From Escherichia coli (GTDB taxonomy: Bacteria; Pseudomonadota; Gammaproteobacteria; Enterobacterales; Enterobacteriaceae): 64,000 nt of DNA. Of the stretch, positions 15,086-31,159 are shown one piece after another (within the stretch, counting starts at the first letter, position 1; each line of letters starts with the position of its first letter). The notes beneath the pieces were generated by a model. It did not search any database, was not told the DNA's origin, and saw nothing but the letters and a program-made list of their open reading frames with translations. A program made the position numbers and the translations under genes. The stretch is from NCBI RefSeq assembly GCF_003790525.1, contig NZ_CP033635.1; one strand, written 5' to 3'.

Positions 15086-16715
15086 TAAATTCCTAAAGTT
15101 GTTTTCTTGCGATTTTGTCTCTCTCTAACCCGCATAAATACTGGTAGCATCTGCATTCAACTGGATAAAATTACAGGGATGCAGAATGAGACACTTTATC
15201 TATCAGGACGAAAAATCACATAAATTCAGGGCAGTTGAGCAACAGGGAAACGAGTTGCATATCAGTTGGGGAAAAGTTGGCACCAAAGGGCAAAGCCAGA
15301 TAAAAAGTTTTTCAGATGCTGCGGCAGCGGCAAAAGCGGAGCTTAAGCTGATTGCGGAGAAGGTGAAGAAGGGGTATGTGGAGCAAGCGAAGGATAATTC
15401 TTTGCAACCTTCCCAAACGGTAACGGGCTCTCTCAAGGTAGCGGACTTATCCACCATTATTCAGGAACAACCCTCTTTCGTAGCAGAAACCCGTGCGCCT
15501 GACAAAAATACAGATGCTGTTTTACCGTGGCTGGCGAAAGATATTGCTGTCGTTTTTCCGCCCGAAGTTGTACACACCACGTTAAGTCATCGCCGCTTTC
15601 CCGGAGTTCCTGTTCAGCAAGCAGACAAATTGCCCCAATTACGTCGCTTAGCCTGTAGTGTGTCGCAACGGGATAATAAAACAGCCACATTTGACTTCAG
15701 CGCCTGTTCTTTAGAATGGCAAAACACCGTCGCCCAGGCGATCAGTCAGATCGACGGCCTGAAAACAACACAGTTACCATCACCAGTAATGGCTGTACTC
15801 ACGGCACTTGAAATGAAATGCACAAGATATAAAGTGCGTGAGGATGTTATGGATCAGATCGTCCAGGAAGGCGGTCTGGAATATGCTACTGATGTAATAA
15901 TACACCTTCAACAGATTGATATTGAATGGGATTATGCGAATAATGTCATTATTATTCTGCCGTCTGGCATTGCACCTAGCTACTTGGAGCAATATTCCAG
16001 ATTTGAATGACGCCTACGTAAACATTTATCACTGACGGAAGAGTCTCTCTGGCAAAAATGTGCACAAAAACTTATTGCCGCAATTCCACATATTCCAGAA
16101 TGGCGGCAACCATTAATTGCTTTGTTATTACCCGAAAAACCAGAAATTGCACATGAAATTGCCCAGCGTCTACTGGGGCAAAAAAAATTACCCTCGCTTG
16201 AGTGGTTAAAAATAGTGGCGACTGATGAGCACATTCTTGCCTCATTAGAAAAATATCACGAACCATATGCCATTTTTGATGATTACTATTGTGGTGCGAT
16301 ATGGTCAGCCACCGTATTACAGGAGCAAGGTGTTGCAGCCCTGCCCCGATTTGCTCCCTATGCCGCAAGTGACTACTGCGCCGATGTGTTGCGTCATATC
16401 AATCATCCGTTCGCATTGACACTGCTTATACGTGTAGCCGGGCAAACTAAACGCTGTCACGATCGGATGACGAAAGCCATTGCTGCGTTCCCACATGCAG
16501 CAATGGCGGCACTGACGGAACTTCTTGGGCAAAAAGAAGAGAACAGTTGGCGCATTATGCTAATGACAATGCTTATCTCACAACCAGCACTGGCAGAACA
16601 GGTCATTCCCTGGCTCTCGACACCCGCAGTTGCCGTACTGAAATCATGCCAGCAACAACTGACACAGCCCTCAAACCATGCCAGCGCCGATCTACTGCCA
16701 GCCGTAGTAGTCTCC

Positions 16716-18054
16716 CATAAGCGCTAACTTAAGGGTTGTGGTATTACGCCTGATATGATTTAACGTGCCGATGAATTACTCTCACGATAACTGGTCAGCA
16801 ATTCTGGCCCATATTGGTAAGCCCGAAGAACTGGATACTTCGGCACGTAATGCCGGGGCTCTAACCCGCCGCCGCGAAATTCGTGATGCTGCAACTCTGC
16901 TACGTCTGGGGCTGGCTTACGGCCCCGGGGGGATGTCATTACGTGAAGTCACTGCATGGGCTCAGCTCCATGACGTTGCAACATTATCTGACGTGGCTCT
17001 CCTGAAGCGGCTGCGGAATGCCGCCGACTGGTTTGGCATACTTGCCGCACAAACACTTGCTGTACGCGCCGCAGTTACGGGTTGTACAAGCGGAAAGAGA
17101 TTGCGTCTTGTCGATGGAACAGCAATCAGTGCGCCCGGGGGCGGCAGCGCTGAATGGCGACTACATATGGGATATGATCCTCATACCTGTCAGTTCACTG
17201 ATTTTGAGCTAACCGACAGCAGAGACGCTGAACGGCTGGACCGATTTGCGCAAACGGCAGACGAGATACGCATTGCTGACCGGGGATTCGGTTCGCGTCC
17301 CGAATGTATCCGCTCACTTGCTTTTGGAGAAGCTGATTATATCGTCCGGGTTCACTGGCGAGGATTGCGCTGGTTAACTGCAGAAGGAATGCGCTTTGAC
17401 ATGATGGGTTTTCTGCGCGGGCTGGATTGCGGTAAGAACGGTGAAACCACTGTAATGATAGGCAATTCAGGTAATAAAAAAGCCGGAGCTCCCTTTCCGG
17501 CACGTCTCATTGCCGTATCACTTCCTCCCGAAAAAGCATTAATCAGTAAAACCCGACTGCTCAGCGAGAATCGTCGAAAAGGACGAGTAGTTCAGGCGGA
17601 AACGCTGGAAGCAGCGGGCCATGTGCTATTGCTAACATCATTACCGGAAGATGAATATTCAGCAGAGCAAGTGGCTGATTGTTACCGTCTGCGATGGCAA
17701 ATTGAACTGGCTTTTAAGCGGCTCAAAAGTTTGCTGCACCTGGATGCTTTGCGTGCAAAGGAACCTGAACTCGCGAAAGCGTGGATATTTGCTAATCTAC
17801 TCGCCGCATTTTTAATTGACGACATAATCCAGCCATCGCTGGATTTCCCCCCCAGAAGTGCCGGATCCGAAAAGAAGAACTAACTCGTTGTGGAGAATAA
17901 CAAAAATGGTCATCTGGAGCTTACAGGTGGCCATTCGTGGGACAGTATCCCTGACAGCCTACAAAACGCAATTGAAGAACGCGAGGCATCGTCTTAACGA
18001 GGCACCGAGGCGTCGCATTCTTCAGATGGTTCAACCCTTAAGTTAGCGCTTATG
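16716..18054 (+). mobile_element. IS186 (IS4 family) insertion sequence, 1339 bp, perfect 23-bp terminal inverted repeats, flanked by a 10-bp target duplication
   Basis: Left end CATAAGCGCTAACTTAAGGGTTG (16716-16738) is the exact inverted complement of the right end (18032-18054); direct repeat AGTAGTCTCC at 16706-16715 and 18055-18064. Confidence 0.85.
16771..17883 (+). CDS. insL: IS186 transposase (DDE, IS4 family)
   Basis: 370-aa product MNYSHDNWSAILAHIGKPEEL... recognised as the IS186 transposase; lies between the terminal inverted repeats. Confidence 0.85.
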   Translation: MNYSHDNWSAILAHIGKPEELDTSARNAGALTRRREIRDAATLLRLGLAYGPGGMSLREVTAWAQLHDVATLSDVALLKRLRNAADWFGILAAQTLAVRAAVTGCTSGKRLRLVDGTAISAPGGGSAEWRLHMGYDPHTCQFTDFELTDSRDAERLDRFAQTADEIRIADRGFGSRPECIRSLAFGEADYIVRVHWRGLRWLTAEGMRFDMMGFLRGLDCGKNGETTVMIGNSGNKKAGAPFPARLIAVSLPPEKALISKTRLLSENRRKGRVVQAETLEAAGHVLLLTSLPEDEYSAEQVADCYRLRWQIELAFKRLKSLLHLDALRAKEPELAKAWIFANLLAAFLIDDIIQPSLDFPPRSAGSEKKN

Positions 18055-20338
18055 AGTAGTCTCCCCTCCCTGGCTTTCGAAAAAGAAAAAATCGCCGATT
18101 CCGGTGCTGGATTTAGCGCCATTAGGCATTGAGCCAATCTGTTATCTGACAGAAGAAATCAGTAATCAACTTTTGGCGAAATATATCTGGTATTCAAAAC
18201 ACATCACGGTTAGCCATGAAGAAAGTACTACCAACCTGTTGGCAAGGATGGGTTTTCAACGACGGATCGCTGGTACATATATTAAAGCTCCCGAAGCGGT
18301 AGTTGAGGCATGGCTAAATGAAGATTATTCAACCTTACTAAGTGAATTTAAGGTGTTTCATTCACCTACCGGGCATTATTGGCAGTTGGGGATTTTGACA
18401 ACATTGCCGCTGGAGAAAGCAGTAAAAGCATGGAATGCCCTTACCCTATCTCCACATACCGATACCGAATACTCCATGTTACATTTTGGACTCAAAGGGT
18501 TACCTGGGTTAGTAAACTCACTTGCACGCTATCCACAAGAAGCCTTGCCCATCACGAATTACTTCGCAGCGAGTGAGCTGGCTCCTGCCGTCGCCCGTGC
18601 CTTCAACAAACTGAAAACGCTACGCGAAAACGCCCGTAGCTGGCTGTTGAAATACCCGGAACATGCCCTTACCGGCCTGCTGCCTGCGGCGCTCGGCAAA
18701 GCCGGTGAAGCACAGGATAACGCCCGCGCTGCCTTGCGTATGCTTACCGAAAACGGTCATCAGCCATTACTGCAAGAAATCGCCCGACGTTATAACCAGC
18801 CGGAAGTAACCGATGCGGTGAACGCTCTGCTTGCGCTCGATCCCTTAGATAATCACCCGACAAAAATCCCCACTCTTCCGGCCTTTTATCAGCCATCGCT
18901 CTGGACGCGCCCGGTATTAAAAGCAAATGCCCAATCACTGCCAGATAGCGCCCTCCTCCACCTCGGTGAAATGCTCCGCTTCCCTCAGGAAGAGGCTCTG
19001 TATCCGGGATTATTGCAGGTGAAAGACGTCTGTTCCGCCGACTCACTGGCGGGATTTGCCTGGGATCTGTTTACCGCCTGGCAGACCGCTGGCGCGCCGT
19101 CGAAAGAGAGTTGGGCGTTCACTGCGTTAGGCGTTCTCGGTAACGATGACACCGCCCGCAAACTGACGCCATTAATACGCGCCTGGCCTGGTGAATCCCA
19201 GCATAAACGCGCCACCGTTGGGTTGGATATTCTCGCTGCTATCGGTAGTGATATCGCCCTTATGCAGCTTAACGGCATCGCCCAGAAACTGAAATTCAAA
19301 GCATTACAGGAGCGGGCAAAAGAAAAAATTGCCGACATTGCCGAGAGCCGCGAACTCACGGTGGCGGAGCTTGAAGATCGGTTAGCACCGGATCTCGGTC
19401 TGGATGATAACGGTTCGCTGCTGCTGGATTTTGGCCCACGGCAGTTCACCGTCAGCTTTGATGAAACCTTAAAACCGTTTGTGCGTGATGTTTCCGGCAG
19501 CCGCCTGAAAGACCTGCCCAAACCGAACAAAAGCGATGATGAAACGCGGGCGAACGATGCGGTTAACCGCTACAAATTGCTGAAAAAAGATGCGCGTACC
19601 ATCGCCGCCCAGCAGGTAGCAAGGCTGGAATCCGCCATGTGCCTGCGCCGCCGCTGGTCGCTGGAAAACTTCCAGCTCTTCCTGGTTGAGCATCCGCTGG
19701 TTCGTCACTTAACCCGCCGTCTGATTTGGGGCGTTTATAGCGCCGAAAACCAGCTACTGGCTTGCTTTCGCGTAGCAGAAGATAACAGCTCCAGCACCGC
19801 TGACGATGATCTTTTCACCCTGCCGGAAGGCGATATCTCTATCGGCACTCCTCACGTTCTGGAAATATCACCAACGGATGCTGCCGCCTTTGGTCAGCTT
19901 TTTGCCGACTACGAACTGCTACCACCGTTCCGCCAGCTCGACCGTAACAGCTACGCCCTGACAGAAGCCGAGCGCAATGCCAGTGAACTGACCCGCTGGG
20001 CAGGCAGAAAATGCCCGAGTGGTCGGGTCATGGGGCTGGCGAATAAAGGCTGGATAAAGGGCGAACCACAGGATGGAGGCTGGATCGGATGGATGATCAA
20101 ACCTTTGGGTCGCTGGTCGTTAATCATGGAAATCGATGAAGGCTTTGCGGTAGGCATGTCGCCAGCCGAACTCAGCGCTGAGCAGCTCTTAAGCAAGCTG
20201 TGGCTATGGGAAGGCAAAGCAGAAAGATATGGCTGGGGGAGTAATTCAACACAGGAAGCGCAGTTCTCCGTAATCGATGCCATCACCGCCAGCGAGCTAA
20301 TTAACGATATTGAAGCCCTGTTTGAATAAGGAAAGAGC

Positions 20339-23300
20339 ATGGACAAGGAATTACCGTGGCTGGCGGATAACGCCCAACTGGAACTGAAATATAAAAAAGG
20401 CAAAACGCCGCTCAGTCATCGTCGCTGGCCGGGCGAACCAGTGTCCGTTATCACTGGAAGTCTCATCCAGACATTGGGTGATGAATTGCTACAAAAAGCT
20501 GAGAAGAAAAAAAACATTGTCTGGCGTTATGAGAATTTTTCACTGGAGTGGCAGTCCGCCATCACGCAGGCCATCAACTTGATCGGCGAACACAAACCCT
20601 CAATCCCGGCCCGGACAATGGCGGCGCTAGCCTGTATCGCGCAAAATGACAGCCAACAGTTGCTCGACGAAATCGTCCAACAAGAGGGGCTGGAATATGC
20701 GACTGAGGTGGTGATTGCACGCCAGTTTATTGCGCGGTGTTATGAGAGTGATCCTCTGGTAGTGACATTGCAGTATCAGGACGAGGATTATGGCTATGGT
20801 TATCGCTCAGAAACCTATAACGAATTCGATCTCCGACTGCGTAAGCATCTCTCTCTGGCAGAGGAAAGCTGCTGGCAGCGTTGCGCCGACAAACTCATTG
20901 CCGCACTACCAGGAATAACCAAAGTTCGCCGCCCTTTTATTGCGCTGATCCTCCCGGAAAAACCAGAAATAGCCAATGAGTTGGTAGGCCTTGAATGCCC
21001 GCGAACTCATTTTCATTCTAAGGAGTGGTTAAAAGTTGTTGCTAATGACCCCACAGCGGTGAGAAAACTCGAACACTACTGGAGCCAGGATATATTTAGC
21101 GATCGAGAAGCCAGCTACATGTCGCATGAAAACCACTTCGGCTACGCGGCCTGCGCCGCCCTTTTGCGCGAACAAGGACTGGCAGCCATTCCGCGCCTCG
21201 CGATGTATGCCCATAAAGAAGATTGCGGCAGTCTGCTGGTACAAATTAACCATCCGCAAGTCATCCGCACCTTGCTACTGGTGGCTGATAAAAACAAACC
21301 CAGCCTGCAACGTGTAGCTAAATACCATAAAAACTTCCCCCATGCGACGCTCGCCGCACTGGCAGAACTGCTGGCGTTAACAGAACCACCAGCCCGCCCT
21401 GGTTATCCAATCATCGAAGACAAAAAGCTGCCTGCACAGCAAAAAGCACGCGATGAATACTGGCGTACGCTGTTACAAACGCTGATGGCATCGCAGCCAC
21501 AACTGGCAGCAGAAGTGATGCCGTGGTTAAGTACTCAACCCCAGTCAGTGCTGAAGAGTTATTTATCGGCACCGCCCAAACCGGTTATTGATGGCACCGA
21601 TAACAGCAATCTGCCAGAAATCCTCGTTTCACCACCGTGGCGTAGTAAGAAAAAAATGACAGCTCCACGTCTTGATTTGGCACCGCTCGAATTAACTCCG
21701 CAAGTTTACTGGCAACCAGGCGAACAAGAGAGGCTTGCCGCCACTGAGCCTGCCCGTTATTTCAGCACGGAATCTCTTGCGCAACGCATGGAACAAAAAA
21801 GTGGACGAGTTGTATTACAGGAACTGGGTTTTGGGGATGATGTATGGCTGTTTCTGAATTATATACTCCCCGGAAAACTGGATGCTGCACGCAATTCACT
21901 CTTGTTCAGTGGCATTACTACCAGGGGCGGGTTGAAGAGATCCTGAATGGCTGGAACTCCCCGGAAGCACAATTAGCAGAACAGGCGCTCCGCAGCGGTC
22001 ACATAGAAGCGTTAATTAACATATGGGAAAATGACAACTACTCACATTATCGTCCGGAAAAGAGTGTCTGGAACCTGTATTTATTGGCACAGTTGCCGCG
22101 TGAGATGGCTTTGACCTTCTGGCTGCGTATCAATGAGAAAAAGCATCTGTTCGCGGGTGAGGACTATTTTCTCAGTATCCTCGGATTGGATGCGCTACCA
22201 GGTCTGCTGTTGGCTTTTTCACATCGTCCAAAAGAAACATTTCCGTTAATTTTAAATTTTGGCGCAACAGAACTGGCGCTGCCTGTTGCCCACGTCTGGC
22301 GACGTTTCGCGGCGCAGCGTGATCTGGCTCGCCAGTGGATTTTACAATGGCCGGAACATACGGCTAGTGCACTTATCCCTCTTGTCTTTACCAAACCCAG
22401 CGATAATAGCGAAGCCGCATTACTTGCCCTGCGTTTACTGTACGAACAGGGACATGGCGAATTGCTACAAACCGTGGCAAACCGCTGGCAGCGTACAGAT
22501 GTATGGTCTGCCCTGGAGCAGTTGCTTAAACAGGGTCCAATGGACATTTACCCGGCACGCATTCCAAAAGCCCCTGATTTCTGGCATCCGCAAATGTGGT
22601 CCAGGCCGCGCCTTATCACTAATAATCAAACTGTTACCAATGACGCTCTGGAAATTATCGGCGAAATGCTGCGCTTTACCCAGGGGGGACGTTTTTATAG
22701 CGGGCTGGAACAACTGAAAACGTTCTGCCAGCCACAAACGCTGGCAGCTTTTGCCTGGGATCTCTTCACTGCGTGGCAACAAGCTGGTGCCCCCGCAAAA
22801 GACAACTGGGCATTTCTGGCGTTAAGTCTCTTTGGTGACGAAAGCACGGCACGGGATCTGACGACACAGATCCTCGCCTGGCCACAAGAAGGCAAATCTG
22901 CCCGTGCTGTCAGCGGCCTGAACATCCTTACCCTGATGAATAATGATATGGCGCTGATACAGCTGCATCATATATCGCAACGGGCTAAATCCCGCCCCTT
23001 ACGTGATAACGCGGCGGAATTTCTTCAGGTGGTCGCAGAAAATCGCGGGCTAAGCCAGGAAGAGCTAGCGGACAGATTAGTCCCAACCCTGGGCCTTGAT
23101 GATCCGCAGGCGTTGAGTTTTGATTTTGGTCCCCGGCAGTTTACCGTTCGCTTCGATGAAAATCTCAACCCGGTTATCTTTGATCAGCAAAACGTTCGCC
23201 AGAAAAGCGTTCCCCGTTTGCGCGCCGATGACGATCAACTGAAAGCGCCCGAGGCACTGGCCCGACTAAAAGGGCTAAAAAAAGATGCTACTCAGGTGAG

Positions 23301-23970
23301 CAAAAACCTGCTCCCGCGTCTTGAAACGGCCCTACGTACCACCCGACGCTGGTCGCTGGCAGATTTTCATTCTCTGTTTGTTAATCATCCCTTTACCCGT
23401 CTGGTTACCCAGCGATTAATATGGGGGGTTTATCCGGCAAATGAACCGCGTTGTTTACTCAAAGCCTTTCGTGTGGCCGCAGAGGGGGAGTTCTGCAATG
23501 CGCAAGATGAGCCAATTGACCTGCCTGCGGACGCTCTGATTGGCATTGCCCACCCGTTAGAAATGACAGCAGAAATGCGCAGTGAATTTGCACAGCTTTT
23601 TGCCGATTACGAAATTATGCCGCCTTTTCGCCAGTTGTCGCGCCGCACGGTGCTGCTCACACCTGACGAGTCAACCAGTAACAGCCTGACTCGCTGGGAA
23701 GGTAAATCCGCTACCGTTGGGCAACTTATGGGAATGCGATACAAAGGCTGGGAGTCAGGCTATGAGGACGCATTTGTCTATAACCTGGGTGAGTACCGGC
23801 TGGTCCTTAAGTTTTCACCCGGTTTTAACCACTACAATGTTGATAGCAAAGCGCTAATGAGCTTCCGTTCTCTTCGAGTGTACCGTGACAATAAATCCGT
23901 CACTTTTGCCGAACTTGATGTGTTTGATTTGAGTGAGGCGTTAAGCGCACCTGACGTCATTTTCCATTAA
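20339..23970 (+). pseudogene. yehI: yehI-like DUF4132 gene split into two overlapping ORFs by a frameshift within 21841-21946
   Basis: ORFs 20339-21946 and 21844-23970 overlap in different frames and together are collinear with the molR paralogue. Confidence 0.65.
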
Positions 23971-24030: not shown

Positions 24031-24348
24031 ATGATCGTGCAAAAAGAGCTGGTTGCTATTTACGATTATGAGGTCCCTGTACCTGAAGATCCGTTTTCCT
24101 TCAGACTTGAGATCCATAAATGCTCTGAATTATTTACAGGTTCCGTCTATCGACTGGAGCGATTCCGGCTACGTCCAACATTTCATCAACGTGATCGAGA
24201 AGATGCTGACCCGCTAATAAATGATGCGTTGATTTATATAAGAGATGAGTGTATTGATGAGCGGAAATTACGAGGTGAATCACCTGAAACTGTAATAGCA
24301 ATTTTTAATCGTGAACTACAGAATATATTCAACCAAGAAATAGAATAA
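24031..24348 (+). CDS. yehK: small protein of unknown function
   Basis: 105-aa ORF, AT-richer than its neighbours, at the K-12 yehK position. Confidence 0.65.
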   Translation: MIVQKELVAIYDYEVPVPEDPFSFRLEIHKCSELFTGSVYRLERFRLRPTFHQRDREDADPLINDALIYIRDECIDERKLRGESPETVIAIFNRELQNIFNQEIE

Positions 24349-24517
24349 TATACTCTAAATAATTCAAATTGGTCCGATCCGGCGCAACGTCCCAATGGCC
24401 TGGATTATAAATCTCATTATCTTAATTGCAACGGGGTCCAGCCGTGGTTATAATTCGTTCGTTGGAACACGATGTTGCACAGGCTGTGGTGTTAGGCCTG
24501 AAAATAGTAAATAAAAG

Positions 24518-24546
24518 AACCTGCCTCACCAGCAGGTTTTTTTATT
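24518..24546 (+). terminator. intrinsic terminator about 170 nt downstream of yehK
   Basis: Hairpin CCTGC-CTCACCA-GCAGG followed by TTTTTTTATTT. Confidence 0.65.
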
Positions 24547-24654
24547 TACTGTGATCTGCTTTCCAGATATTTTTCGCTCAAACAACTAATGCGCCAAACA
24601 TTTATTGCGCGTAAAATATCGTTTATTTCATTAATACATTTCAGGGATGAATAT

Positions 24655-25743
24655 ATGTCACCGCAGAATAATCATCTGCAGCGTCCGCCTGCTGCTGTGT
24701 TATACGCCGATGAACTGGCAAAATTAAAACAAAATGATAACGCACCTTGCCCGCCCGGTTGGCAGTTAAGTTTGCCTGCGGCCCGTGCTTTTATCCTTGG
24801 CGACGAAGCGCAAAATATCAGCCGTAAAGTGGTGATTAGCCCCTCCGCTGTCGAACGTATGTTAGTCACTCTTGCTACCGGCCGCGGTTTGATGTTGGTG
24901 GGGGAACCGGGTACCGCAAAATCTCTTCTTTCTGAATTACTGGCAACCGCTATTAGCGGCGATGCCGGGTTAACCATCCAGGGCGGGGCATCTACCACCG
25001 AAGATCAAATCAAGTATGGCTGGAACTACGCCCTGCTTATCAATCATGGTCCGTCAACGGAAGCGCTGGTCCCTGCCCCGCTTTATCAGGAAATGCGCGA
25101 CGGCAAAATCGTCCGTTTCGAAGAGATAACGCGTACACCGCTGGAAGTGCAGGACTGTCTGTTAGGTATGCTTTCTGACAGGGTGATGACGGTGCCGGAA
25201 CTCACTGGTGAAGCCAGTCAGCTCTATGCGCGAGAAGGCTTTAATATTATTGCCACTGCCAATACCCGCGATCGCGGCGTCAATGAAATGAGTGCTGCGC
25301 TAAAGCGTCGCTTCGATTTTGAAACGGTTTTTCCGATTATGGATTTCGCCCAGGAGTTGGAACTGGTCGCCAGTGCTTCGGCGCGTTTGCTGGCCCATAG
25401 CGGTATTCCGCATAAAGTGCCTGACGCGGTACTGGAATTACTGGTCCGCACCTTCCGCGATCTGCGTGCCAACGGCGAAAAGAAAACGTCAATGGATACA
25501 CTGACAGCGATTATGTCCACCGCTGAAGCCGTGAACGTGGCCCATGCTGTGGGCGTCCGCGCCTGGTTTTTAGCGAATCGCGCGGGGGAGCCTGCCGACC
25601 TGGTGGAATGTATTGCCGGAACCATCGTCAAAGATAACGAAGAAGATCGCGCGCGTCTGCGCCGTTACTTCGAACAGCGTGTCGCCACACATAAAGAAGC
25701 TCACTGGCAGGCTTATTATCAAGCCCGCCACCGCCTGCCGTGA
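24655..25743 (+). CDS. yehL: MoxR-like AAA+ ATPase
   Basis: 362-aa product from the ATG at 24655; Walker A LMLVGEPGTAKS. Confidence 0.85.
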   Translation: MSPQNNHLQRPPAAVLYADELAKLKQNDNAPCPPGWQLSLPAARAFILGDEAQNISRKVVISPSAVERMLVTLATGRGLMLVGEPGTAKSLLSELLATAISGDAGLTIQGGASTTEDQIKYGWNYALLINHGPSTEALVPAPLYQEMRDGKIVRFEEITRTPLEVQDCLLGMLSDRVMTVPELTGEASQLYAREGFNIIATANTRDRGVNEMSAALKRRFDFETVFPIMDFAQELELVASASARLLAHSGIPHKVPDAVLELLVRTFRDLRANGEKKTSMDTLTAIMSTAEAVNVAHAVGVRAWFLANRAGEPADLVECIAGTIVKDNEEDRARLRRYFEQRVATHKEAHWQAYYQARHRLP

Positions 25744-25753
25744 GGAAAGATGC

Positions 25754-28033
25754 ATGAGCGAGCCGTTAATTGTCGGCATCCGGCATCATAGTCCGGCCTG
25801 CGCCCGGCTGGTGAAATCGTTAATCGAAAGCCAGCGGCCACGATACGTGTTGATTGAAGGCCCGGCTGATTTTAATGACCGGGTAGACGAACTGTTTTTA
25901 GCCCACCAGCTTCCGGTAGCTATTTACAGTTATTGCCAGTATCAGGACGGTGCAGCCCCCGGGCGTGGTGCCTGGACGCCATTTGCTGAATTTTCGCCGG
26001 AGTGGCAGGCGCTACAAGCCGCACGTCGCATTCAGGCACAAACTTACTTCATCGATTTGCCTTGCTGGGCGCAGAGTGAAGAAGAGGACGATTCGCCTGA
26101 TACGCAAGATGAAAGCCAGGCCTTACTGCTGCGTGCCACCCGCATGGATAACAGCGATACCCTGTGGGATCACTTGTTCGAAGATGAAAGCCAGCAAACT
26201 GCATTACCCTCTGCGCTGGCGCACTATTTTGCCCAACTGCGGGGCGACGCCTCCGGCGATGCGCTCAATCGTCAGCGCGAAGCCTTTATGGCCCGCTGGA
26301 TTGGATGGGCGATGCAGCAAAATAATGGCGACGTGTTAGTTGTCTGCGGTGGCTGGCACGCTCCGGCACTGGCAAAGATGTGGCGCGAATGCCCTCAGAA
26401 AATTAACAAGCCAGAATTGCCCTCGCTGGCAGATGCCGTTACAGGTTGTTATCTCACACCCTACAGTGAAAAGCGCCTTGATGTGCTGGCAGGATACCTT
26501 TCAGGAATGCCTGCCCCGGTATGGCAAAACTGGTGCTGGCAGTGGGGCTTGCAGAAGGCCGGTGAACAACTGCTAAAAACTATCCTTACCCGTTTGCGCC
26601 AGCACAAATTGCCCGCTTCTACCGCGGATATGGCTGCCGCTCATCTGCATGCGATGGCGCTGGCACAGTTGCGCGGTCATACACTACCGTTACGCACTGA
26701 CTGGCTGGATGCCATAGCAGGCTCGCTGATTAAAGAAGCCCTGAACGCGCCGTTGCCGTGGAGCTATCGCGGCGTTATTCATCCCGATACCGATCCGATT
26801 CTGCTAACGTTGATAGACACATTAGCGGGTGACGGATTCGGTAAACTTGCCCCTTCTACGCCACAACCGCCTCTGCCAAAAGATGTCACCTGCGAACTGG
26901 AACGTACCGCAATCTCCCTTCCGGCGGAGCTTACCTTAAATCGCTTTACCCCCGATGGGCTGGCGCAAAGTCAGGTGTTACATCGGCTGGCAATACTGGA
27001 GATCCCTGGGATTGTACGCCAGCAGGGAAGTACACTGACACTTGCAGGCAACGGTGAAGAACGCTGGAAATTAACCCGCCCGCTTAGCCAGCATGCGGCA
27101 TTGATTGAGGCCGCCTGTTTTGGTGCCACACTCCAGGAAGCCGCACGCAATAAATTAGAAGCCGATATGCTGGACGCGGGCGGAATCGGCAGTATCACCA
27201 CATGTCTTAGCCAGGCGGCGTTAGCGGGTCTGGCGTCCTTCAGTCAACAATTACTGGAGCAACTCACACTATTAATCGCCCAGGAAAATCAATTTGCCGA
27301 AATGGGCCAGGCGCTGGAAGTGCTTTATGCCTTATGGCGGCTGGATGAAATTAGCGGTATGCAAGGCGCGCAGATATTACAAACGACGTTATGCGCGACT
27401 ATCGATCGCACGCTGTGGCTGTGTGAATCTAACGGCAGACCGGATGAAAAGGAGTTTCACGCTCACCTGCATAGCTGGCAAGCGCTTTGCCATATTCTGC
27501 GCGATCTACATAGCGGCGTTAATTTACCCGGCGTTTCTCTTTCTGCGGCGGTAGCCTTACTGGAGCGACGCAGTCAGGCAATTCATGCCCCGGCGCTGGA
27601 TCGCGGCGCGGCTCTTGGCGCACTAATGCGTCTGGAACATCCCAACGCCAGTGCCGAAGCGGCGCTGACGATGCTGGCGCAGTTATCCCCGGCACAATCT
27701 GGTGAGGCGCTGCACGGTTTGCTGGCGCTGGCCCGCCATCAACTGGCCTGTCAGCCGGCATTTATCGCCGGTTTCAGCAGTCATTTAAATCAACTGAGTG
27801 AAGCCGATTTTATTAACGCCCTGCCCGATTTACGCGCGGCGATGGCCTGGCTACCACCACTAGAACGCGGGACGCTGGCGCATCAGGTGCTTGAGCATTA
27901 TCAACTGGCGCAACTTCCCGTTTCGGCGCTGCAAATGCCGTTGCATTGTCCACCACAGGCCATTGCACATCATCAACAACTCGAACAGCAGGCACTGGCA
28001 TCGCTGCAAAACTGGGGAGTTTTCCATGTCTGA
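25754..28033 (+). CDS. yehM: large protein of unknown function, partner of the MoxR ATPase
   Basis: 759-aa ORF starting MSEPLIVGIRHHSPACARLV...; tightly linked to yehL and yehP. Confidence 0.8.
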   Translation: MSEPLIVGIRHHSPACARLVKSLIESQRPRYVLIEGPADFNDRVDELFLAHQLPVAIYSYCQYQDGAAPGRGAWTPFAEFSPEWQALQAARRIQAQTYFIDLPCWAQSEEEDDSPDTQDESQALLLRATRMDNSDTLWDHLFEDESQQTALPSALAHYFAQLRGDASGDALNRQREAFMARWIGWAMQQNNGDVLVVCGGWHAPALAKMWRECPQKINKPELPSLADAVTGCYLTPYSEKRLDVLAGYLSGMPAPVWQNWCWQWGLQKAGEQLLKTILTRLRQHKLPASTADMAAAHLHAMALAQLRGHTLPLRTDWLDAIAGSLIKEALNAPLPWSYRGVIHPDTDPILLTLIDTLAGDGFGKLAPSTPQPPLPKDVTCELERTAISLPAELTLNRFTPDGLAQSQVLHRLAILEIPGIVRQQGSTLTLAGNGEERWKLTRPLSQHAALIEAACFGATLQEAARNKLEADMLDAGGIGSITTCLSQAALAGLASFSQQLLEQLTLLIAQENQFAEMGQALEVLYALWRLDEISGMQGAQILQTTLCATIDRTLWLCESNGRPDEKEFHAHLHSWQALCHILRDLHSGVNLPGVSLSAAVALLERRSQAIHAPALDRGAALGALMRLEHPNASAEAALTMLAQLSPAQSGEALHGLLALARHQLACQPAFIAGFSSHLNQLSEADFINALPDLRAAMAWLPPLERGTLAHQVLEHYQLAQLPVSALQMPLHCPPQAIAHHQQLEQQALASLQNWGVFHV

Positions 28034-29162
28034 ACTGAACGATCTTCTGACCACCCGTGAGCTACAACGCTGGCGATTAATTCTTGGCGAAGCGGCAGAA
28101 ACGACGCTTTGTGGGCTGGATGACAACGCCCGGCAGATAGACCACGCGCTGGAGTGGCTGTATGGGCGCGATCCTGAACGGCTCCAGCGTGGTGAACGTT
28201 CCGGTGGATTAGGTGGCTCAAATCTCACCACCCCTGAGTGGATCAACAGTATTCACACGCTGTTTCCGCAGCAGGTGATTGAGCGGCTGGAAAGCGATGC
28301 CGTGCTGCGCTACGGCATTGAAGATGTGGTGACGAATCTCGACGTGCTGGAACGTATGCAGCCTTCTGAAAGCCTGCTACGCGCTGTTTTGCACACCAAA
28401 CATCTGATGAACCCCGAAGTACTGGCTGCCGCCCGCCGGATAGTGTGCCAGGTTGTTGAAGAAATTATGGCTCGACTGGCAAAGGAAGTTCGTCAGGCTT
28501 TTTCTGGTGTCCGCGATCGCCGTCGCCGTTCATTTATTCCACTGGCGCGAAACTTTGATTTCAAAAGTACTCTGCGCGCCAACCTGCAACACTGGCACCC
28601 GCAACACGGCAAGTTGTATATCGAATCCCCCCGCTTTAACAGCCGCATTAAACGCCAAAGCGAACAATGGCAACTGGTCTTACTGGTTGATCAAAGCGGA
28701 TCGATGGTTGACTCGGTGATCCACTCTGCGGTGATGGCGGCCTGTTTATGGCAGTTACCCGGCATTCGTACCCATCTGGTGGCGTTTGACACCAGCGTCG
28801 TTGATCTCACGGCAGACGTTGCTGATCCGGTAGAGTTATTAATGAAAGTACAACTGGGCGGCGGGACCAATATCGCCAGTGCCGTGGAGTATGGTCGGCA
28901 ACTTATTGAACAACCAGCAAAAAGCGTCATTATCCTCGTGAGCGATTTCTATGAAGGGGGTTCATCATCATTGCTGACGCATCAGGTGAAAAAGTGTGTC
29001 CAGAGCGGCGTCAAAGTGCTGGGACTGGCGGCGCTCGATAGCACCGCAACACCTTGCTATGACCGCGATATGGCCCAGGCGCTGGTTAATGTCGGCGCAC
29101 AAATAGCTGCCATGACACCGGGCGAACTGGCGGCCTGGCTTGCGGAGAATCTTCAGTCATGA
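28026..29162 (+). CDS. yehP: von Willebrand factor A (VWA) domain protein
   Basis: 378-aa product MSELNDLLTT...; MIDAS-like motif LLVDQSGSM; start overlaps the yehM stop by 8 nt. Confidence 0.85.
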   Translation: MSELNDLLTTRELQRWRLILGEAAETTLCGLDDNARQIDHALEWLYGRDPERLQRGERSGGLGGSNLTTPEWINSIHTLFPQQVIERLESDAVLRYGIEDVVTNLDVLERMQPSESLLRAVLHTKHLMNPEVLAAARRIVCQVVEEIMARLAKEVRQAFSGVRDRRRRSFIPLARNFDFKSTLRANLQHWHPQHGKLYIESPRFNSRIKRQSEQWQLVLLVDQSGSMVDSVIHSAVMAACLWQLPGIRTHLVAFDTSVVDLTADVADPVELLMKVQLGGGTNIASAVEYGRQLIEQPAKSVIILVSDFYEGGSSSLLTHQVKKCVQSGVKVLGLAALDSTATPCYDRDMAQALVNVGAQIAAMTPGELAAWLAENLQS

Positions 29163-31159
29163 ATTCACTACGTCCGGAATTATTAGAACTGACGCCGCAG
29201 GCCCTGACGGCGTTAAGCAATGCCGGTTTTGTTAAACGCAGTCTTAAGGAACTGGAAAATGGCAACGTCCCGGAAATCAGCCATAAGAACGGCGCTTTAA
29301 TCGCCACCTTCAGTGACGGTGTCCGTACCCAGCTGGCGAACGGTCAGGCACTGAAAGAGGCTCAATGCAGCTGCGGGGCCAACGGTATGTGCCGTCATCG
29401 CGTGATGCTGGTGTTAAGTTATCAACGACTTTGTGCCACCACTCAGTCTACGGAAAAAGAAGAAGAGTGGGATCCGGCAATCTGGCTGGAAGAACTGGCT
29501 ACCCTTCCCGATGCTACCCGCAAACGCGCACAGGCGCTGGTCGCTAAAGGCATCACCATTGAGTTGTTCTGTGCGCCGGGTGAAATTCCCTCTGCCCGCT
29601 TACCGATGAGCGATGTGCGTTTTTATTCCCGCAGCAGTATTCGTTTCGCCCGTTGTGATTGTATTGAAGGCACACTTTGCGAACATGTCGTACTGGCGGT
29701 ACAGGCCTTCGTCGAGGCCAAAGCGCAGCAAGTAGAATTTAACCATTTAATCTGGCAGATGCGCAGCGAACACGTCACATCATCTGACGATCCGTTTGCC
29801 AGCGAAGAAGGCAACGCGTGTCGTCAATATGTTCAGCAATTAAGCCAGACATTATGGCTTGGCGGCATCAGCCAGCCGCTCATCCATTACGAGGCAGCAT
29901 TCAACCGCGCATTGCAGGCGGCAGAGACCTGCAACTGGCGCTGGGTGAGTGAATCGCTACGGCAACTGCGCGCCAGCGTTGATGCCTTCCACGCCCGCGC
30001 CAGCCACTATAATGCCGGAGAATGCTTACATCAGCTTGCGGCATTAAACAGTCGATTAAATTGCGCACAAGAGATGGCCCGGCGCGACAGTATTGGTGAA
30101 GTTCCTCCTGTGCCGTGGCGCACGGTCGTTGGCTCTGGCATTGCCGGAGAAGCAAAGCTTGATCATCTGCGGCTGGTGTCTTTAGGTATGCGTTGCTGGC
30201 AGGATATTGAGCATTATGGTTTACGCATCTGGTTTACCGATCCCGACACCGGCAGTATTTTGCACCTTTCGCGCAGTTGGCCGCGAAGTGAACAGGAAAA
30301 CTCACCGGCAGCTACGCGTCGGCTGTTTAGTTTTCAGGCTGGCGCACTGGCGGGCGGGCAAATTGTTTCACAAGCAGCAAAACGCAGTGCCGATGGCGAG
30401 CTGCTGTTAGCTACCCGCAACCGCTTAAGCAGCGTTGTGCCGCTGTCGCCTGATGCCTGGCAAATGTTGAGCGCGCCGTTACGCCAGCCGGGCATTGTGG
30501 CTTTGCGGGAATATTTACGCCAGCGTCCCCCCGCCTGCATACGGCCTCTTAATCAGGTCGATAACTTATTTATTCTGCCGGTCGCTGAGTGTATTTCGCT
30601 CGGTTGGGACAGCAGCCGCCAGACGCTGGATGCGCAGGTCATTAGCGGCGAAGGGGAAGATAATGTGCTGACGTTATCATTACCAGCCTCAGCCAGCGCA
30701 CCTTATGCCGTTGAACGCATGGCGGCGCTTTTGCAACAAACAGACGACCCCGTGTGTCTGGTTTCTGGCTTTGTCAGTTTTGTTGAAGGGCAATTGACAC
30801 TGGAACCACGGGTGATGATGACAAAAACCCGTGCCTGGGCGCTGGACGCAGAAACTACGCCTGTGGCACCGCTACCTTCTGCCAGCGTTTTGCCTGTGCC
30901 GTCTACTGCTCATCAGTTGCTGATACGCTGCCAGGCGTTACTTATTCAACTGCTCCATAACGGCTGGCACTATCAGGAACAGAGTGCTATTGGTCAGGCA
31001 GAGTTGCTGGCGAATGACCTCACCGCGGTGGGTTTTTATCGGCTGGCACATGTGTTGGGACAATTTCGTAATACAGAAAGCGAGGCACGGGTAGAAGCAA
31101 TGAATAACGGTGTTTTGCTTTGCGAACAATTATTCCCCATGCTTCAGCAACAAGGATGA
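29159..31159 (+). CDS. yehQ: SWIM zinc-finger domain protein
   Basis: Two SWIM-like CxC...CxH motifs (CSCGANGMCRHRVMLV and CDCIEGTLCEHVVLAV); ATGA start/stop overlap with yehP. Confidence 0.8.
   Translation: MNSLRPELLELTPQALTALSNAGFVKRSLKELENGNVPEISHKNGALIATFSDGVRTQLANGQALKEAQCSCGANGMCRHRVMLVLSYQRLCATTQSTEKEEEWDPAIWLEELATLPDATRKRAQALVAKGITIELFCAPGEIPSARLPMSDVRFYSRSSIRFARCDCIEGTLCEHVVLAVQAFVEAKAQQVEFNHLIWQMRSEHVTSSDDPFASEEGNACRQYVQQLSQTLWLGGISQPLIHYEAAFNRALQAAETCNWRWVSESLRQLRASVDAFHARASHYNAGECLHQLAALNSRLNCAQEMARRDSIGEVPPVPWRTVVGSGIAGEAKLDHLRLVSLGMRCWQDIEHYGLRIWFTDPDTGSILHLSRSWPRSEQENSPAATRRLFSFQAGALAGGQIVSQAAKRSADGELLLATRNRLSSVVPLSPDAWQMLSAPLRQPGIVALREYLRQRPPACIRPLNQVDNLFILPVAECISLGWDSSRQTLDAQVISGEGEDNVLTLSLPASASAPYAVERMAALLQQTDDPVCLVSGFVSFVEGQLTLEPRVMMTKTRAWALDAETTPVAPLPSASVLPVPSTAHQLLIRCQALLIQLLHNGWHYQEQSAIGQAELLANDLTAVGFYRLAHVLGQFRNTESEARVEAMNNGVLLCEQLFPMLQQQG

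Follow-up and report, generated by a model that had tools for sequence, protein, structure and literature searches.

We analysed a stretch of 64,000 nucleotides (nt) of the Escherichia coli chromosome (contig NZ_CP033635.1), called the window in what follows, which covers the metG–molR–yehI–yehK–yehLMPQ–yehR region. We focus on its four adjacent genes yehL, yehM, yehP and yehQ (yehLMPQ), which belong, together with the upstream DUF4132 genes molR and yehI, to a unit of five protein families. The 6.5-kb yehLMPQ segment reaches 99.6% identity with annotated yehL–yehM–yehP–yehQ, and the gene order annotated in strain 203740 is metG, a DUF4132 pseudogene (molR), yehI, yehK, yehLMPQ, yehR, yehS and btsRS. 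At a coverage of at least 80%, the segment is found in 5202 of 5426 complete E. coli genomes (about 96%), with 90-99% identity. The features of the locus, as open reading frames (ORFs) and candidate sites, are the following.

24655..25743, + strand: yehL, MoxR-class AAA+ ATPase (AAA_5), 362 amino acids (aa), intact ORF
25754..28033, + strand: yehM, DUF5682 protein, 759 aa, intact ORF
28026..29162, + strand: yehP, VWA_CoxE protein, 378 aa, with a complete metal ion-dependent adhesion site (MIDAS) and a conserved 150-aa N-terminal domain, intact ORF
29159..31159, + strand: yehQ, protein with SWIM module(s), four-helix bundles and OB-like beta-barrels, 666 aa, intact ORF
15186..20329, + strand: molR, WGR–DUF4132 paralogue, a pseudogene here, in fragmented ORFs
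20339..23970, + strand: yehI, second DUF4132 paralogue (HEAT-like repeats and DUF4132), frameshifted, two ORFs in different frames
15161..15176, + strand: putative LexA (SOS) box of the form CTG-N10-CAG, CTGGATAAAATTACAG, 10 nt 5' of the molR ATG
16717..18055, + strand: IS4-family (IS186-like) insertion sequence (IS) within molR, a segment missing in strain 203740 (L001)
24031..24348, + strand: yehK, 105-aa ORF lying outside the conserved cassette
24426..24454, + strand: sigma-70-like promoter candidate for yehLMPQ, TTGCAA-17-TATAAT, from a consensus scan of the yehK–yehL spacer
24518..24538, no strand assigned: G+C-rich hairpin between T/A runs, terminator-like, from the terminator scan (− strand)

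A previous reading of this DNA, made from the sequence alone, had given the four yehLMPQ ORFs with their coordinates, start/stop overlaps and motifs, and all of these proved exact when we re-read the sequence: yehM and yehP overlap by ATGTCTGA (28026-28033), yehP and yehQ by ATGA (29159-29162), and only 10 nt separate yehL from yehM. The domain calls of this sequence-only reading (AAA+, VWA and SWIM) and the translational coupling were also borne out by Pfam and by the sequence check. It had further stated that the operon has no assigned function, in agreement with our finding no functional study of yehLMPQ, of DUF5682 or of the cassette in the searchable literature.

We then looked at how far these genes are conserved as a group. 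Relatives of YehM number 2247 among 50%-identity cluster representatives and at least 553 in a scan of one genome per species. Our locus sample consisted of 80 YehM loci, each taken with 10 kb on either side, from Enterobacterales, Xanthomonadales, Betaproteobacteria, Myxococcota and Actinomycetota, and the families were counted by iterative searches over all ORFs of these loci. Results showed that a YehL homologue is present in 80/80 loci, a YehP homologue in 77/80 and a YehQ homologue in 75/80, while YehI-like DUF4132 homologues were found in 72/80 (129 ORFs). YehK has a homologue in a single locus of the 80, which is an Escherichia one, and YehR in two. In almost all 80 loci, the genes follow one another on a single strand in the order (WGR–)DUF4132 (one to three copies), AAA_5, DUF5682, VWA and SWIM; the YehP-like VWA gene sits two genes downstream of yehL (77/80) and the DUF4132 genes, one to three of them, immediately precede the other four in the same orientation (72/80). 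The four-gene cluster proposed from the sequence alone is therefore co-conserved, but the real unit is larger, since molR and yehI, which had been missed, belong in it because of the DUF4132 genes directly upstream in those 72 loci.

The proteins of the cassette in other species align with those of E. coli end to end. Beyond genus-level synteny, no further flanking family was common to the 80 loci, so that the boundaries of the module are those of exactly five families. DUF4132, YehL, YehM, YehP and YehQ thus form one unit. A plasmid of Bacillus mycoides and linear plasmids of Streptomyces encode the five annotated gene products in identical order, and in Klebsiella the cassette is syntenic with yehR. 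In addition, two distant cluster representatives (P0229 and P0261) are YehM–YehP fusions of about 1180 aa, full-length in both parts. The five families do not evolve at the same pace: in the loci of Myxococcota and Actinobacteria, YehL and YehP keep 54-65% identity to the E. coli proteins, whereas YehM, YehQ and YehI have 22-40%.

Several other arrangements were observed in the course of these searches. Near-identical E. coli YehM–YehP "fusions" (P0001, P0003, P0010 and P0013) resemble artefacts of assembly or gene calling. A more distant variant cassette, SWIM–DUF5691–AAA–DUF5682–VWA, with DUF5691 in place of DUF4132, occurs on a Rhizobium etli plasmid (L082, 5113-12448) and on a Hymenobacter plasmid (L083, 4183-12422), the latter with one annotated 1009-aa DUF5691 protein and no separate SWIM gene. 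We considered DUF5691 as a relative of YehQ or YehI and did not retain it, as only the SWIM region is shared and the relationship is otherwise unsupported. Finally, a plasmid of Rhodococcus sp. USK13 (L086, 8196-9293) carries a stand-alone and apparently split DUF4132 gene, with no AAA, DUF5682, VWA or SWIM partner; within a few kb of it are a GIY-YIG nuclease gene and an anti-plasmid system of the Wadjet kind that contains JetD.

YehL has been a named MoxR subfamily since 2006, with no function assigned to it, and to our knowledge E. coli has only two MoxR ATPases. Seven MoxR subfamilies are named, and YehL is the type member of one (PMC3893208). We found that YehL matches Pfam AAA_5 (7.9e-35) and carries the Walker A motif GEPGTAKS at aa 83-90; this motif, F155-E156-E157 (FEE, at the Walker B position), N203, R205 and R218/R219 are invariant in 35 homologues, whose identity to the E. 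coli protein is 60-86% (60-65% in Actinobacteria). Among solved structures, its best sequence matches are to AAA modules of midasin/Rea1 (4e-9), and in NCBIfam it gave only weak matches to GvpN, MadB and McrB. YehP matches Pfam VWA_CoxE (2e-72), and its MIDAS motif DQSGSM lies at aa 222-227, with D222, S224, S226, T256 and D307 invariant in 34 sequences and an identity to homologues of 54-79% (57-61% in Actinobacteria). Sequence searches against solved structures returned no match for YehP, nor for YehM, YehQ and YehI. The conservation pattern indicates that the Walker A/FEE residues of YehL and the MIDAS of YehP are under selection, as is the His/Glu/Arg set of YehM described below. Inside yehP (28884-28899), we found an exact copy of GTGGAGTATGGTCGGC, described as a hot spot of +1 ribosomal frameshifting (PMC2790909); as it encodes conserved YehP residues, its conservation in E. 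coli may simply reflect constraint on the protein.

A MoxR-class AAA+ protein beside a VWA protein with intact MIDAS is also what is found in the characterised pairs RavA–ViaA, NorQ–NorD, CbbQ–CbbO and CoxD–CoxE. These pairs mature metalloenzymes, and typically adjoin the gene of their client. The Yeh proteins could by analogy be a chaperone for metalloenzyme maturation or cofactor insertion, and the molybdate label attached to molR would then reflect a real link to metals. In favour of this, YehP belongs to the VWA_CoxE family, YehL is an AAA_5 protein like those of the CbbQ/NorQ/GvpN group, with its weak GvpN match, and the fold of YehM (see below) resembles haem-binding ChaN; moreover, MoxR–VWA pairs are described as machines for target remodelling and metal insertion (PMC13036017, PMC9976466 and PMC3893208). 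However, no adjacent gene for a client enzyme is conserved in the 80 loci, and the domains of the accessory proteins are of the WGR, SWIM and OB types, not of a metal-trafficking kind. The Yeh cassette also differs from the characterised pairs by its three further, obligatory partners (YehM, YehQ and WGR–DUF4132) and by a regulation that points to DNA damage and not to a metabolic pathway. Regulation of the LexA, PafBC or DdrO type, described below, would be unexpected for a cofactor pathway, and in Deinococcus the molybdenum-metabolism genes did not respond together with the DUF4132 and WGR genes (PMC8533742). We consider a maturation role very unlikely.

Midasin offers another comparison, since it combines AAA_5 modules with a MIDAS/VWA element, which grips a partner and transmits the force for its extraction, and since it gives the best structure matches of YehL. 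It differs in that its six AAA modules are fused in one chain of about 4,900 residues, which works on the pre-60S particle, whereas YehL and YehP are separate and small; no link of YehL or YehP with the ribosome was seen in our analysis.

In YehM, the sequence-only reading had seen no motif that it could name. This has to be revised, as YehM is a DUF5682 protein (Pfam, 7.9e-98) and its structural model consists of an N-terminal TIKI/TraB/ChaN-like alpha/beta domain (about aa 1-260) followed by a C-terminal HEAT/ARM-like solenoid. The alpha/beta fold has a parallel beta-sheet core, as in TraB, ChaN, HopBA1 and the Ere proteins. R10, H11, E35, H51, E83, D101, R175, E176, M179, G199 and H202 are invariant in 69/69 sequences; the model places H11, E35, H51, E83, E176 and H202, together with H12, at the ends of strands, and all seven show no or almost no variation. 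Because of these invariant polar residues at strand ends, we infer that YehM is a putative active hydrolase. Sequence comparison did not recover the superfamily: Pfam gave only DUF5682 and no TraB/Tiki match, and a profile of the 69 sequences found no TIKI-family PDB chain at E<=10. Foldseek with the full-length model against the PDB returned nothing significant. Coiled-coil matches to YehM in the profile searches were discarded as spurious. Compared with the known members of the TIKI/TraB/PrgY/ChaN/EreA superfamily (Tiki, RRSP, erythromycin esterases and HopBA1), YehM has no detectable sequence-profile relationship to them, and it is fused to a helical solenoid of about 500 residues and encoded within an AAA+/VWA operon.

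YehQ matches the Pfam SWIM family twice, weakly (1.3e-3 and 0.21), and has two CxC..CxH motifs of the CxCxnCxH type, CSCGANGMCRH at aa 70-80 and CDCIEGTLCEH at aa 166-176. The ligand set of the first SWIM is invariant, while the second is kept in only 26-27 of 49 sequences. The model of YehQ (predicted local distance difference test score, pLDDT, 92.2) shows four-helix bundles and OB-like beta-barrels at about aa 331-560.

The DUF4132 proteins, the fifth family, have about 1200 residues, with HEAT-like repeats and a very conserved C-terminal stretch of 400 residues, and in 48 of 72 loci they bear an N-terminal WGR domain, which has been termed a DNA-binding domain (PMC7824862). The Edaphovirga orthologue of MolR has WGR (Pfam, 1.6e-18) and DUF4132, the N-terminus of MolR matches PDB 2ra8 (1.7e-15) and, weakly, the WGR domain of PARP3, and an intact YehI orthologue has DUF4132 (Pfam, 4.7e-47) with HEAT-like repeats by profile search. 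WGR in the DUF4132 proteins and the SWIM and OB-like barrels of YehQ are domains of the nucleic-acid-binding type. By contrast, neither domain content nor neighbourhood gives any support to MolR as a molybdate regulator, and we set this idea aside.

In the window, molR is interrupted by an IS186-like element of about 1338 bp, missing in strain 203740, which has inverted repeats CATAAGCGCTAACTTAAGGGTTG, a target duplication GTAGTCTCCC and a transposase ORF at 16765-17883 (372 aa, NF033592, 1e-38). In strain 203740, molR is itself annotated as a frameshifted DUF4132 pseudogene, and it is described as disrupted in K-12 (PMC3950696). yehI has a 1-nt deletion near 21902 (TTT to TT compared with strain 203740), which shifts the frame at about codon 521 and could be either a real pseudogene mutation or a sequencing error in a homopolymer. 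Other E. coli have IS903B or IS421 in the yehLMPQ segment, in yehM and yehL (H2, NZ_OY754357.1; H3, NZ_LR883012.1), and in a sublineage of sequence type 131 (ST131) the resistance transposon TnMB1860 lies in the DUF4132 region (PMC9334617). The yeh locus is thus a recurrent target of disruption. Moreover, H-NS binds the yehK–yehL intergenic region, and expression of yehL and yehM rises in hns/stpA mutants (PMC3686432). As both DUF4132 genes are broken and H-NS silences yehLMPQ, the proposed machine made of MolR, YehI and YehLMPQ is probably incomplete in this strain, despite intact yehL, yehM, yehP and yehQ.

These same observations (IS and frameshifts in molR, the yehI deletion, the molR pseudogenes of other strains, the IS and transposon insertions, and H-NS silencing) would also be expected if the locus, silenced and in decay, were a relic that has lost its function in E. 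coli, particularly in this strain, which is a species-specific reading. Against it, the four yehLMPQ genes are all intact with coupled starts in the window, their retention in about 96% of the genomes at 90-99% identity argues for continuing selection on at least these four, and the single-base yehI deletion may be the sequencing error just mentioned. A relic seems improbable to us.

We also looked at the control of the locus. molR is among the LexA-regulated genes of E. coli with a known SOS box (Table 1 of PMC6590174), and at the equivalent position Intestinirhabdus (L007) has the box CTGGATGTATGCACAG. The strict form CTGT-N8-ACAG has no match anywhere in the 64-kb window, and no LexA-like site was seen on reading the yehK–yehL spacer, where the relaxed CTG-N10-CAG scan was not run separately. 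CTG-N10-CAG matches were in excess in other loci, but we did not retain them as operators, since they fall in the GC-rich 3' part of the DUF4132 coding sequence. BglJ–RcsB activates the molR promoter as well (PMC3950696). In Deinococcus radiodurans, DRA0166 (DUF4132) and DR2173 (WGR) are controlled by DdrO/IrrE and induced by mitomycin C (PMC8533742). Because of the E. coli molR and Deinococcus cases, we searched the actinobacterial loci for the PafBC motif tGTCgg(N10)tA(N3)T (PMC8635444). Results showed 22 sense matches, candidate PafBC sites, at most 500 nt upstream of a DUF4132 gene or a yehL-like one; they come from 20 of the 39 actinobacterial loci and represent nine genera (Actinomadura, Lentzea, Spirillospora, Actinophytocola, Catellatospora, Herbidospora, Actinokineospora, Salinispora and Pseudonocardia), while the remaining 1.56 Mb (both strands) contained only 8; the number expected upstream was 0.27 (Poisson P ~3e-34). 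The motif is kept while the spacer sequences differ between genera.

The yehK–yehL spacer (24349-24654) is AT-rich (38.6% GC), and on the + strand its hairpin (24518-24538) is followed by TTTTTTTATTT. It is 306 nt long, as in MG1655, and lacks the z3289/z3290 repeats; in most E. coli the spacer is of 1.2 kb and contains these type I toxin–antitoxin repeats together with small RNAs (PMC2887945).

Taking these results together, our best reading, which we hold tentatively, is that yehLMPQ encodes one half, the motor, of a MoxR–VWA machine that has five components and is induced by DNA damage, that the other half is WGR–HEAT–DUF4132 MolR/YehI, and that this machine remodels or proteolyses DNA-associated substrates. 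The WGR–DUF4132 protein or proteins and YehQ would bind a nucleic-acid-associated substrate arising after genome damage. YehM would contribute a HEAT-like scaffold and a TIKI/TraB-type hydrolase site, probably that of a peptidase (or an esterase), while YehP would dock through its MIDAS and couple the complex to a YehL AAA+ hexamer, whose ATP hydrolysis would remodel or extract the substrate or present it for cleavage. In E. coli, the cassette is split into a molR–yehI–yehK unit bearing the LexA box and an H-NS-silenced yehLMPQ operon, an arrangement that looks derived.

Several points weigh against this interpretation. The SOS box of E. coli precedes molR and not yehL, and a terminator-like hairpin and a separate H-NS-silenced promoter stand between molR–yehI–yehK and yehLMPQ. 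Boxes of the LexA type upstream of the cassette were not found in the Serratia, Erwinia, beta-proteobacterial, Xanthomonadales and Myxococcota loci, and on plasmid p322 of Bacillus mycoides (L085, 5709-5721) the Cheo/DinR-like box AAACGTATGTTCG has one mismatch and is not significant alone; it belongs to a complete cassette, where it lies about 145 nt before the DUF4132 gene and is the sole such site in the promoter region. As the actinobacterial loci are related, the Poisson probability given above overstates their independence. The proposed link of yehLMPQ to damage comes from promoter sites and from the regulation of homologues, and damage regulons include toxins and prophage or defence genes, so that induction does not specify a role in repair. 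Regarding the proteins, DNA binding by the WGR, SWIM and OB-like domains is suggested by their folds alone, and the correspondence of the YehM His/Glu residues to the published catalytic 2His/2Glu site of the TIKI superfamily is putative.

The sequence-only reading had proposed a candidate undescribed system, noting that MoxR–VWA modules recur in conflict and stress systems, and the regulatory evidence, which points instead to a DNA-damage response, is still compatible with a damage-triggered defence role. In such an anti-phage or anti-mobile-element system, the WGR–DUF4132 proteins would sense foreign or damaged nucleic acid, the MoxR–VWA pair would license the response and the TIKI-like peptidase YehM would be the effector, cleaving a protein of the host or of the phage, possibly through abortive infection. 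Several observations would fit. NTP-dependent conflict systems repeatedly have a MoxR–vWA module at their core (PMC7159879), the TIKI superfamily includes toxins and effectors such as RRSP and HopBA1 (PMC6254334), and damage-responsive control of the WYL type is described for phage-defence mechanisms too (PMC10693628). The DUF4132 genes, in one to three copies and fast evolving beside a constant motor, show a sensor-like pattern. The cassette is patchily distributed among taxa and has clearly been transferred horizontally, as in a Propionibacteriaceae locus that groups with the proteobacterial ones, and it has been called horizontally acquired (PMC2790909). Silencing by H-NS and repeated decay in E. 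coli, as seen above in H2, H3 and the molR and yehI genes of the window, would also fit.

Other results do not favour a conflict system. YehK, YehL, YehM, YehP and YehQ had zero matches at E<=0.01 to the 5027 models of PADLOC-DB v2, a scan that did not include YehI and MolR. In E. coli, the locus is near-core and keeps the same position (the 5202 genomes given above), and homologues of YehM are rare on mobile elements, with 39 of 72,556 plasmid records (mostly megaplasmids) and 1 of 50,697 phage records. Across the 80 loci no defence-island neighbourhood is conserved, and YehL and YehP are conserved across phyla like core housekeeping proteins, which is unusual for defence genes. The results thus do not support a conflict system, which is the main rival of our best reading and which we regard as rather unlikely, less so than the relic or the maturation role. 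YehI, YehK, YehM, YehP and YehQ have near-identical matches in PHROG (phrog_20839, 36295, 30700, 33984, 31592 and 29006), to singleton-like families without known function; we did not take these as a sign of phage origin, since they are probably host DNA in prophage calls, which fits the single phage record with a YehM homologue.

Two further described MoxR–vWA systems are close to the Yeh cassette. The MoxR–vWA–beta-propeller ternary conflict systems (Kaur et al. 2020, PMC7159879) share with the Yeh cassette a MoxR–vWA core with large accessory proteins and a concentration in large-genome soil bacteria (actinomycetes and myxobacteria). They differ in that YehL is a marginal match to bpMoxR (E 0.0024 over 50 residues) and in that no beta-propeller, VMAP or effector-associated domain was detected in the Yeh proteins, whose partners are DUF5682, SWIM and DUF4132; by occurrence counts, the same paper mentions neither SWIM nor WGR. 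In a jumbo-phage MoxR–vWA pair, the vWA protein is fused to a metallopeptidase and is proposed to couple remodelling with proteolytic processing (PMC7824862). This combination of MoxR, vWA and a peptidase-type domain parallels the YehM–YehP fusions, but the peptidase fold, the context (virion assembly) and the partners all differ.

A more specific form of the damage-response machine, which we think improbable as it stands, is an AAA+-driven DNA-targeted protease, in which WGR–DUF4132 and the SWIM/OB protein would recognise lesions or trapped nucleoprotein complexes and the motor would feed YehM. In eukaryotes, Cdc48/p97 with SPRTN/Wss1 carries out DNA–protein crosslink repair. The comparison would be a functional analogy only, between a damage-linked AAA+ unfoldase with a DNA-dependent protease and the Yeh cassette; the two have no homology, and we offer it as the kind of job that such a domain set could do. 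If true, the cassette would be a bacterial functional counterpart of the p97–SPRTN-type removal of proteins stuck on DNA, under LexA, PafBC or DdrO control depending on the lineage.

Part of this picture is already known, namely the pairing of MoxR with VWA proteins, the MoxR subfamily named after YehL, the DUF families given by Pfam and the SOS box of molR. In the searchable literature we did not find the five-family cassette, the fold assignments of YehM and YehQ, the partnership with WGR–DUF4132 or the association with the PafBC motif. Our analysis places YehL in a module of five families that is fixed in its make-up and conserved in four phyla or more, gives fold-level identities to two subunits considered "unknown", YehM and YehQ, and ties the module to three different DNA-damage regulatory circuits (LexA, PafBC and DdrO). 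For E. coli, it also means that K-12-like strains in which molR or yehI is broken may be the wrong ones for seeking a phenotype. An orphan operon is thereby turned into a testable hypothesis, that of a new damage-response machine or of a damage-triggered defence.

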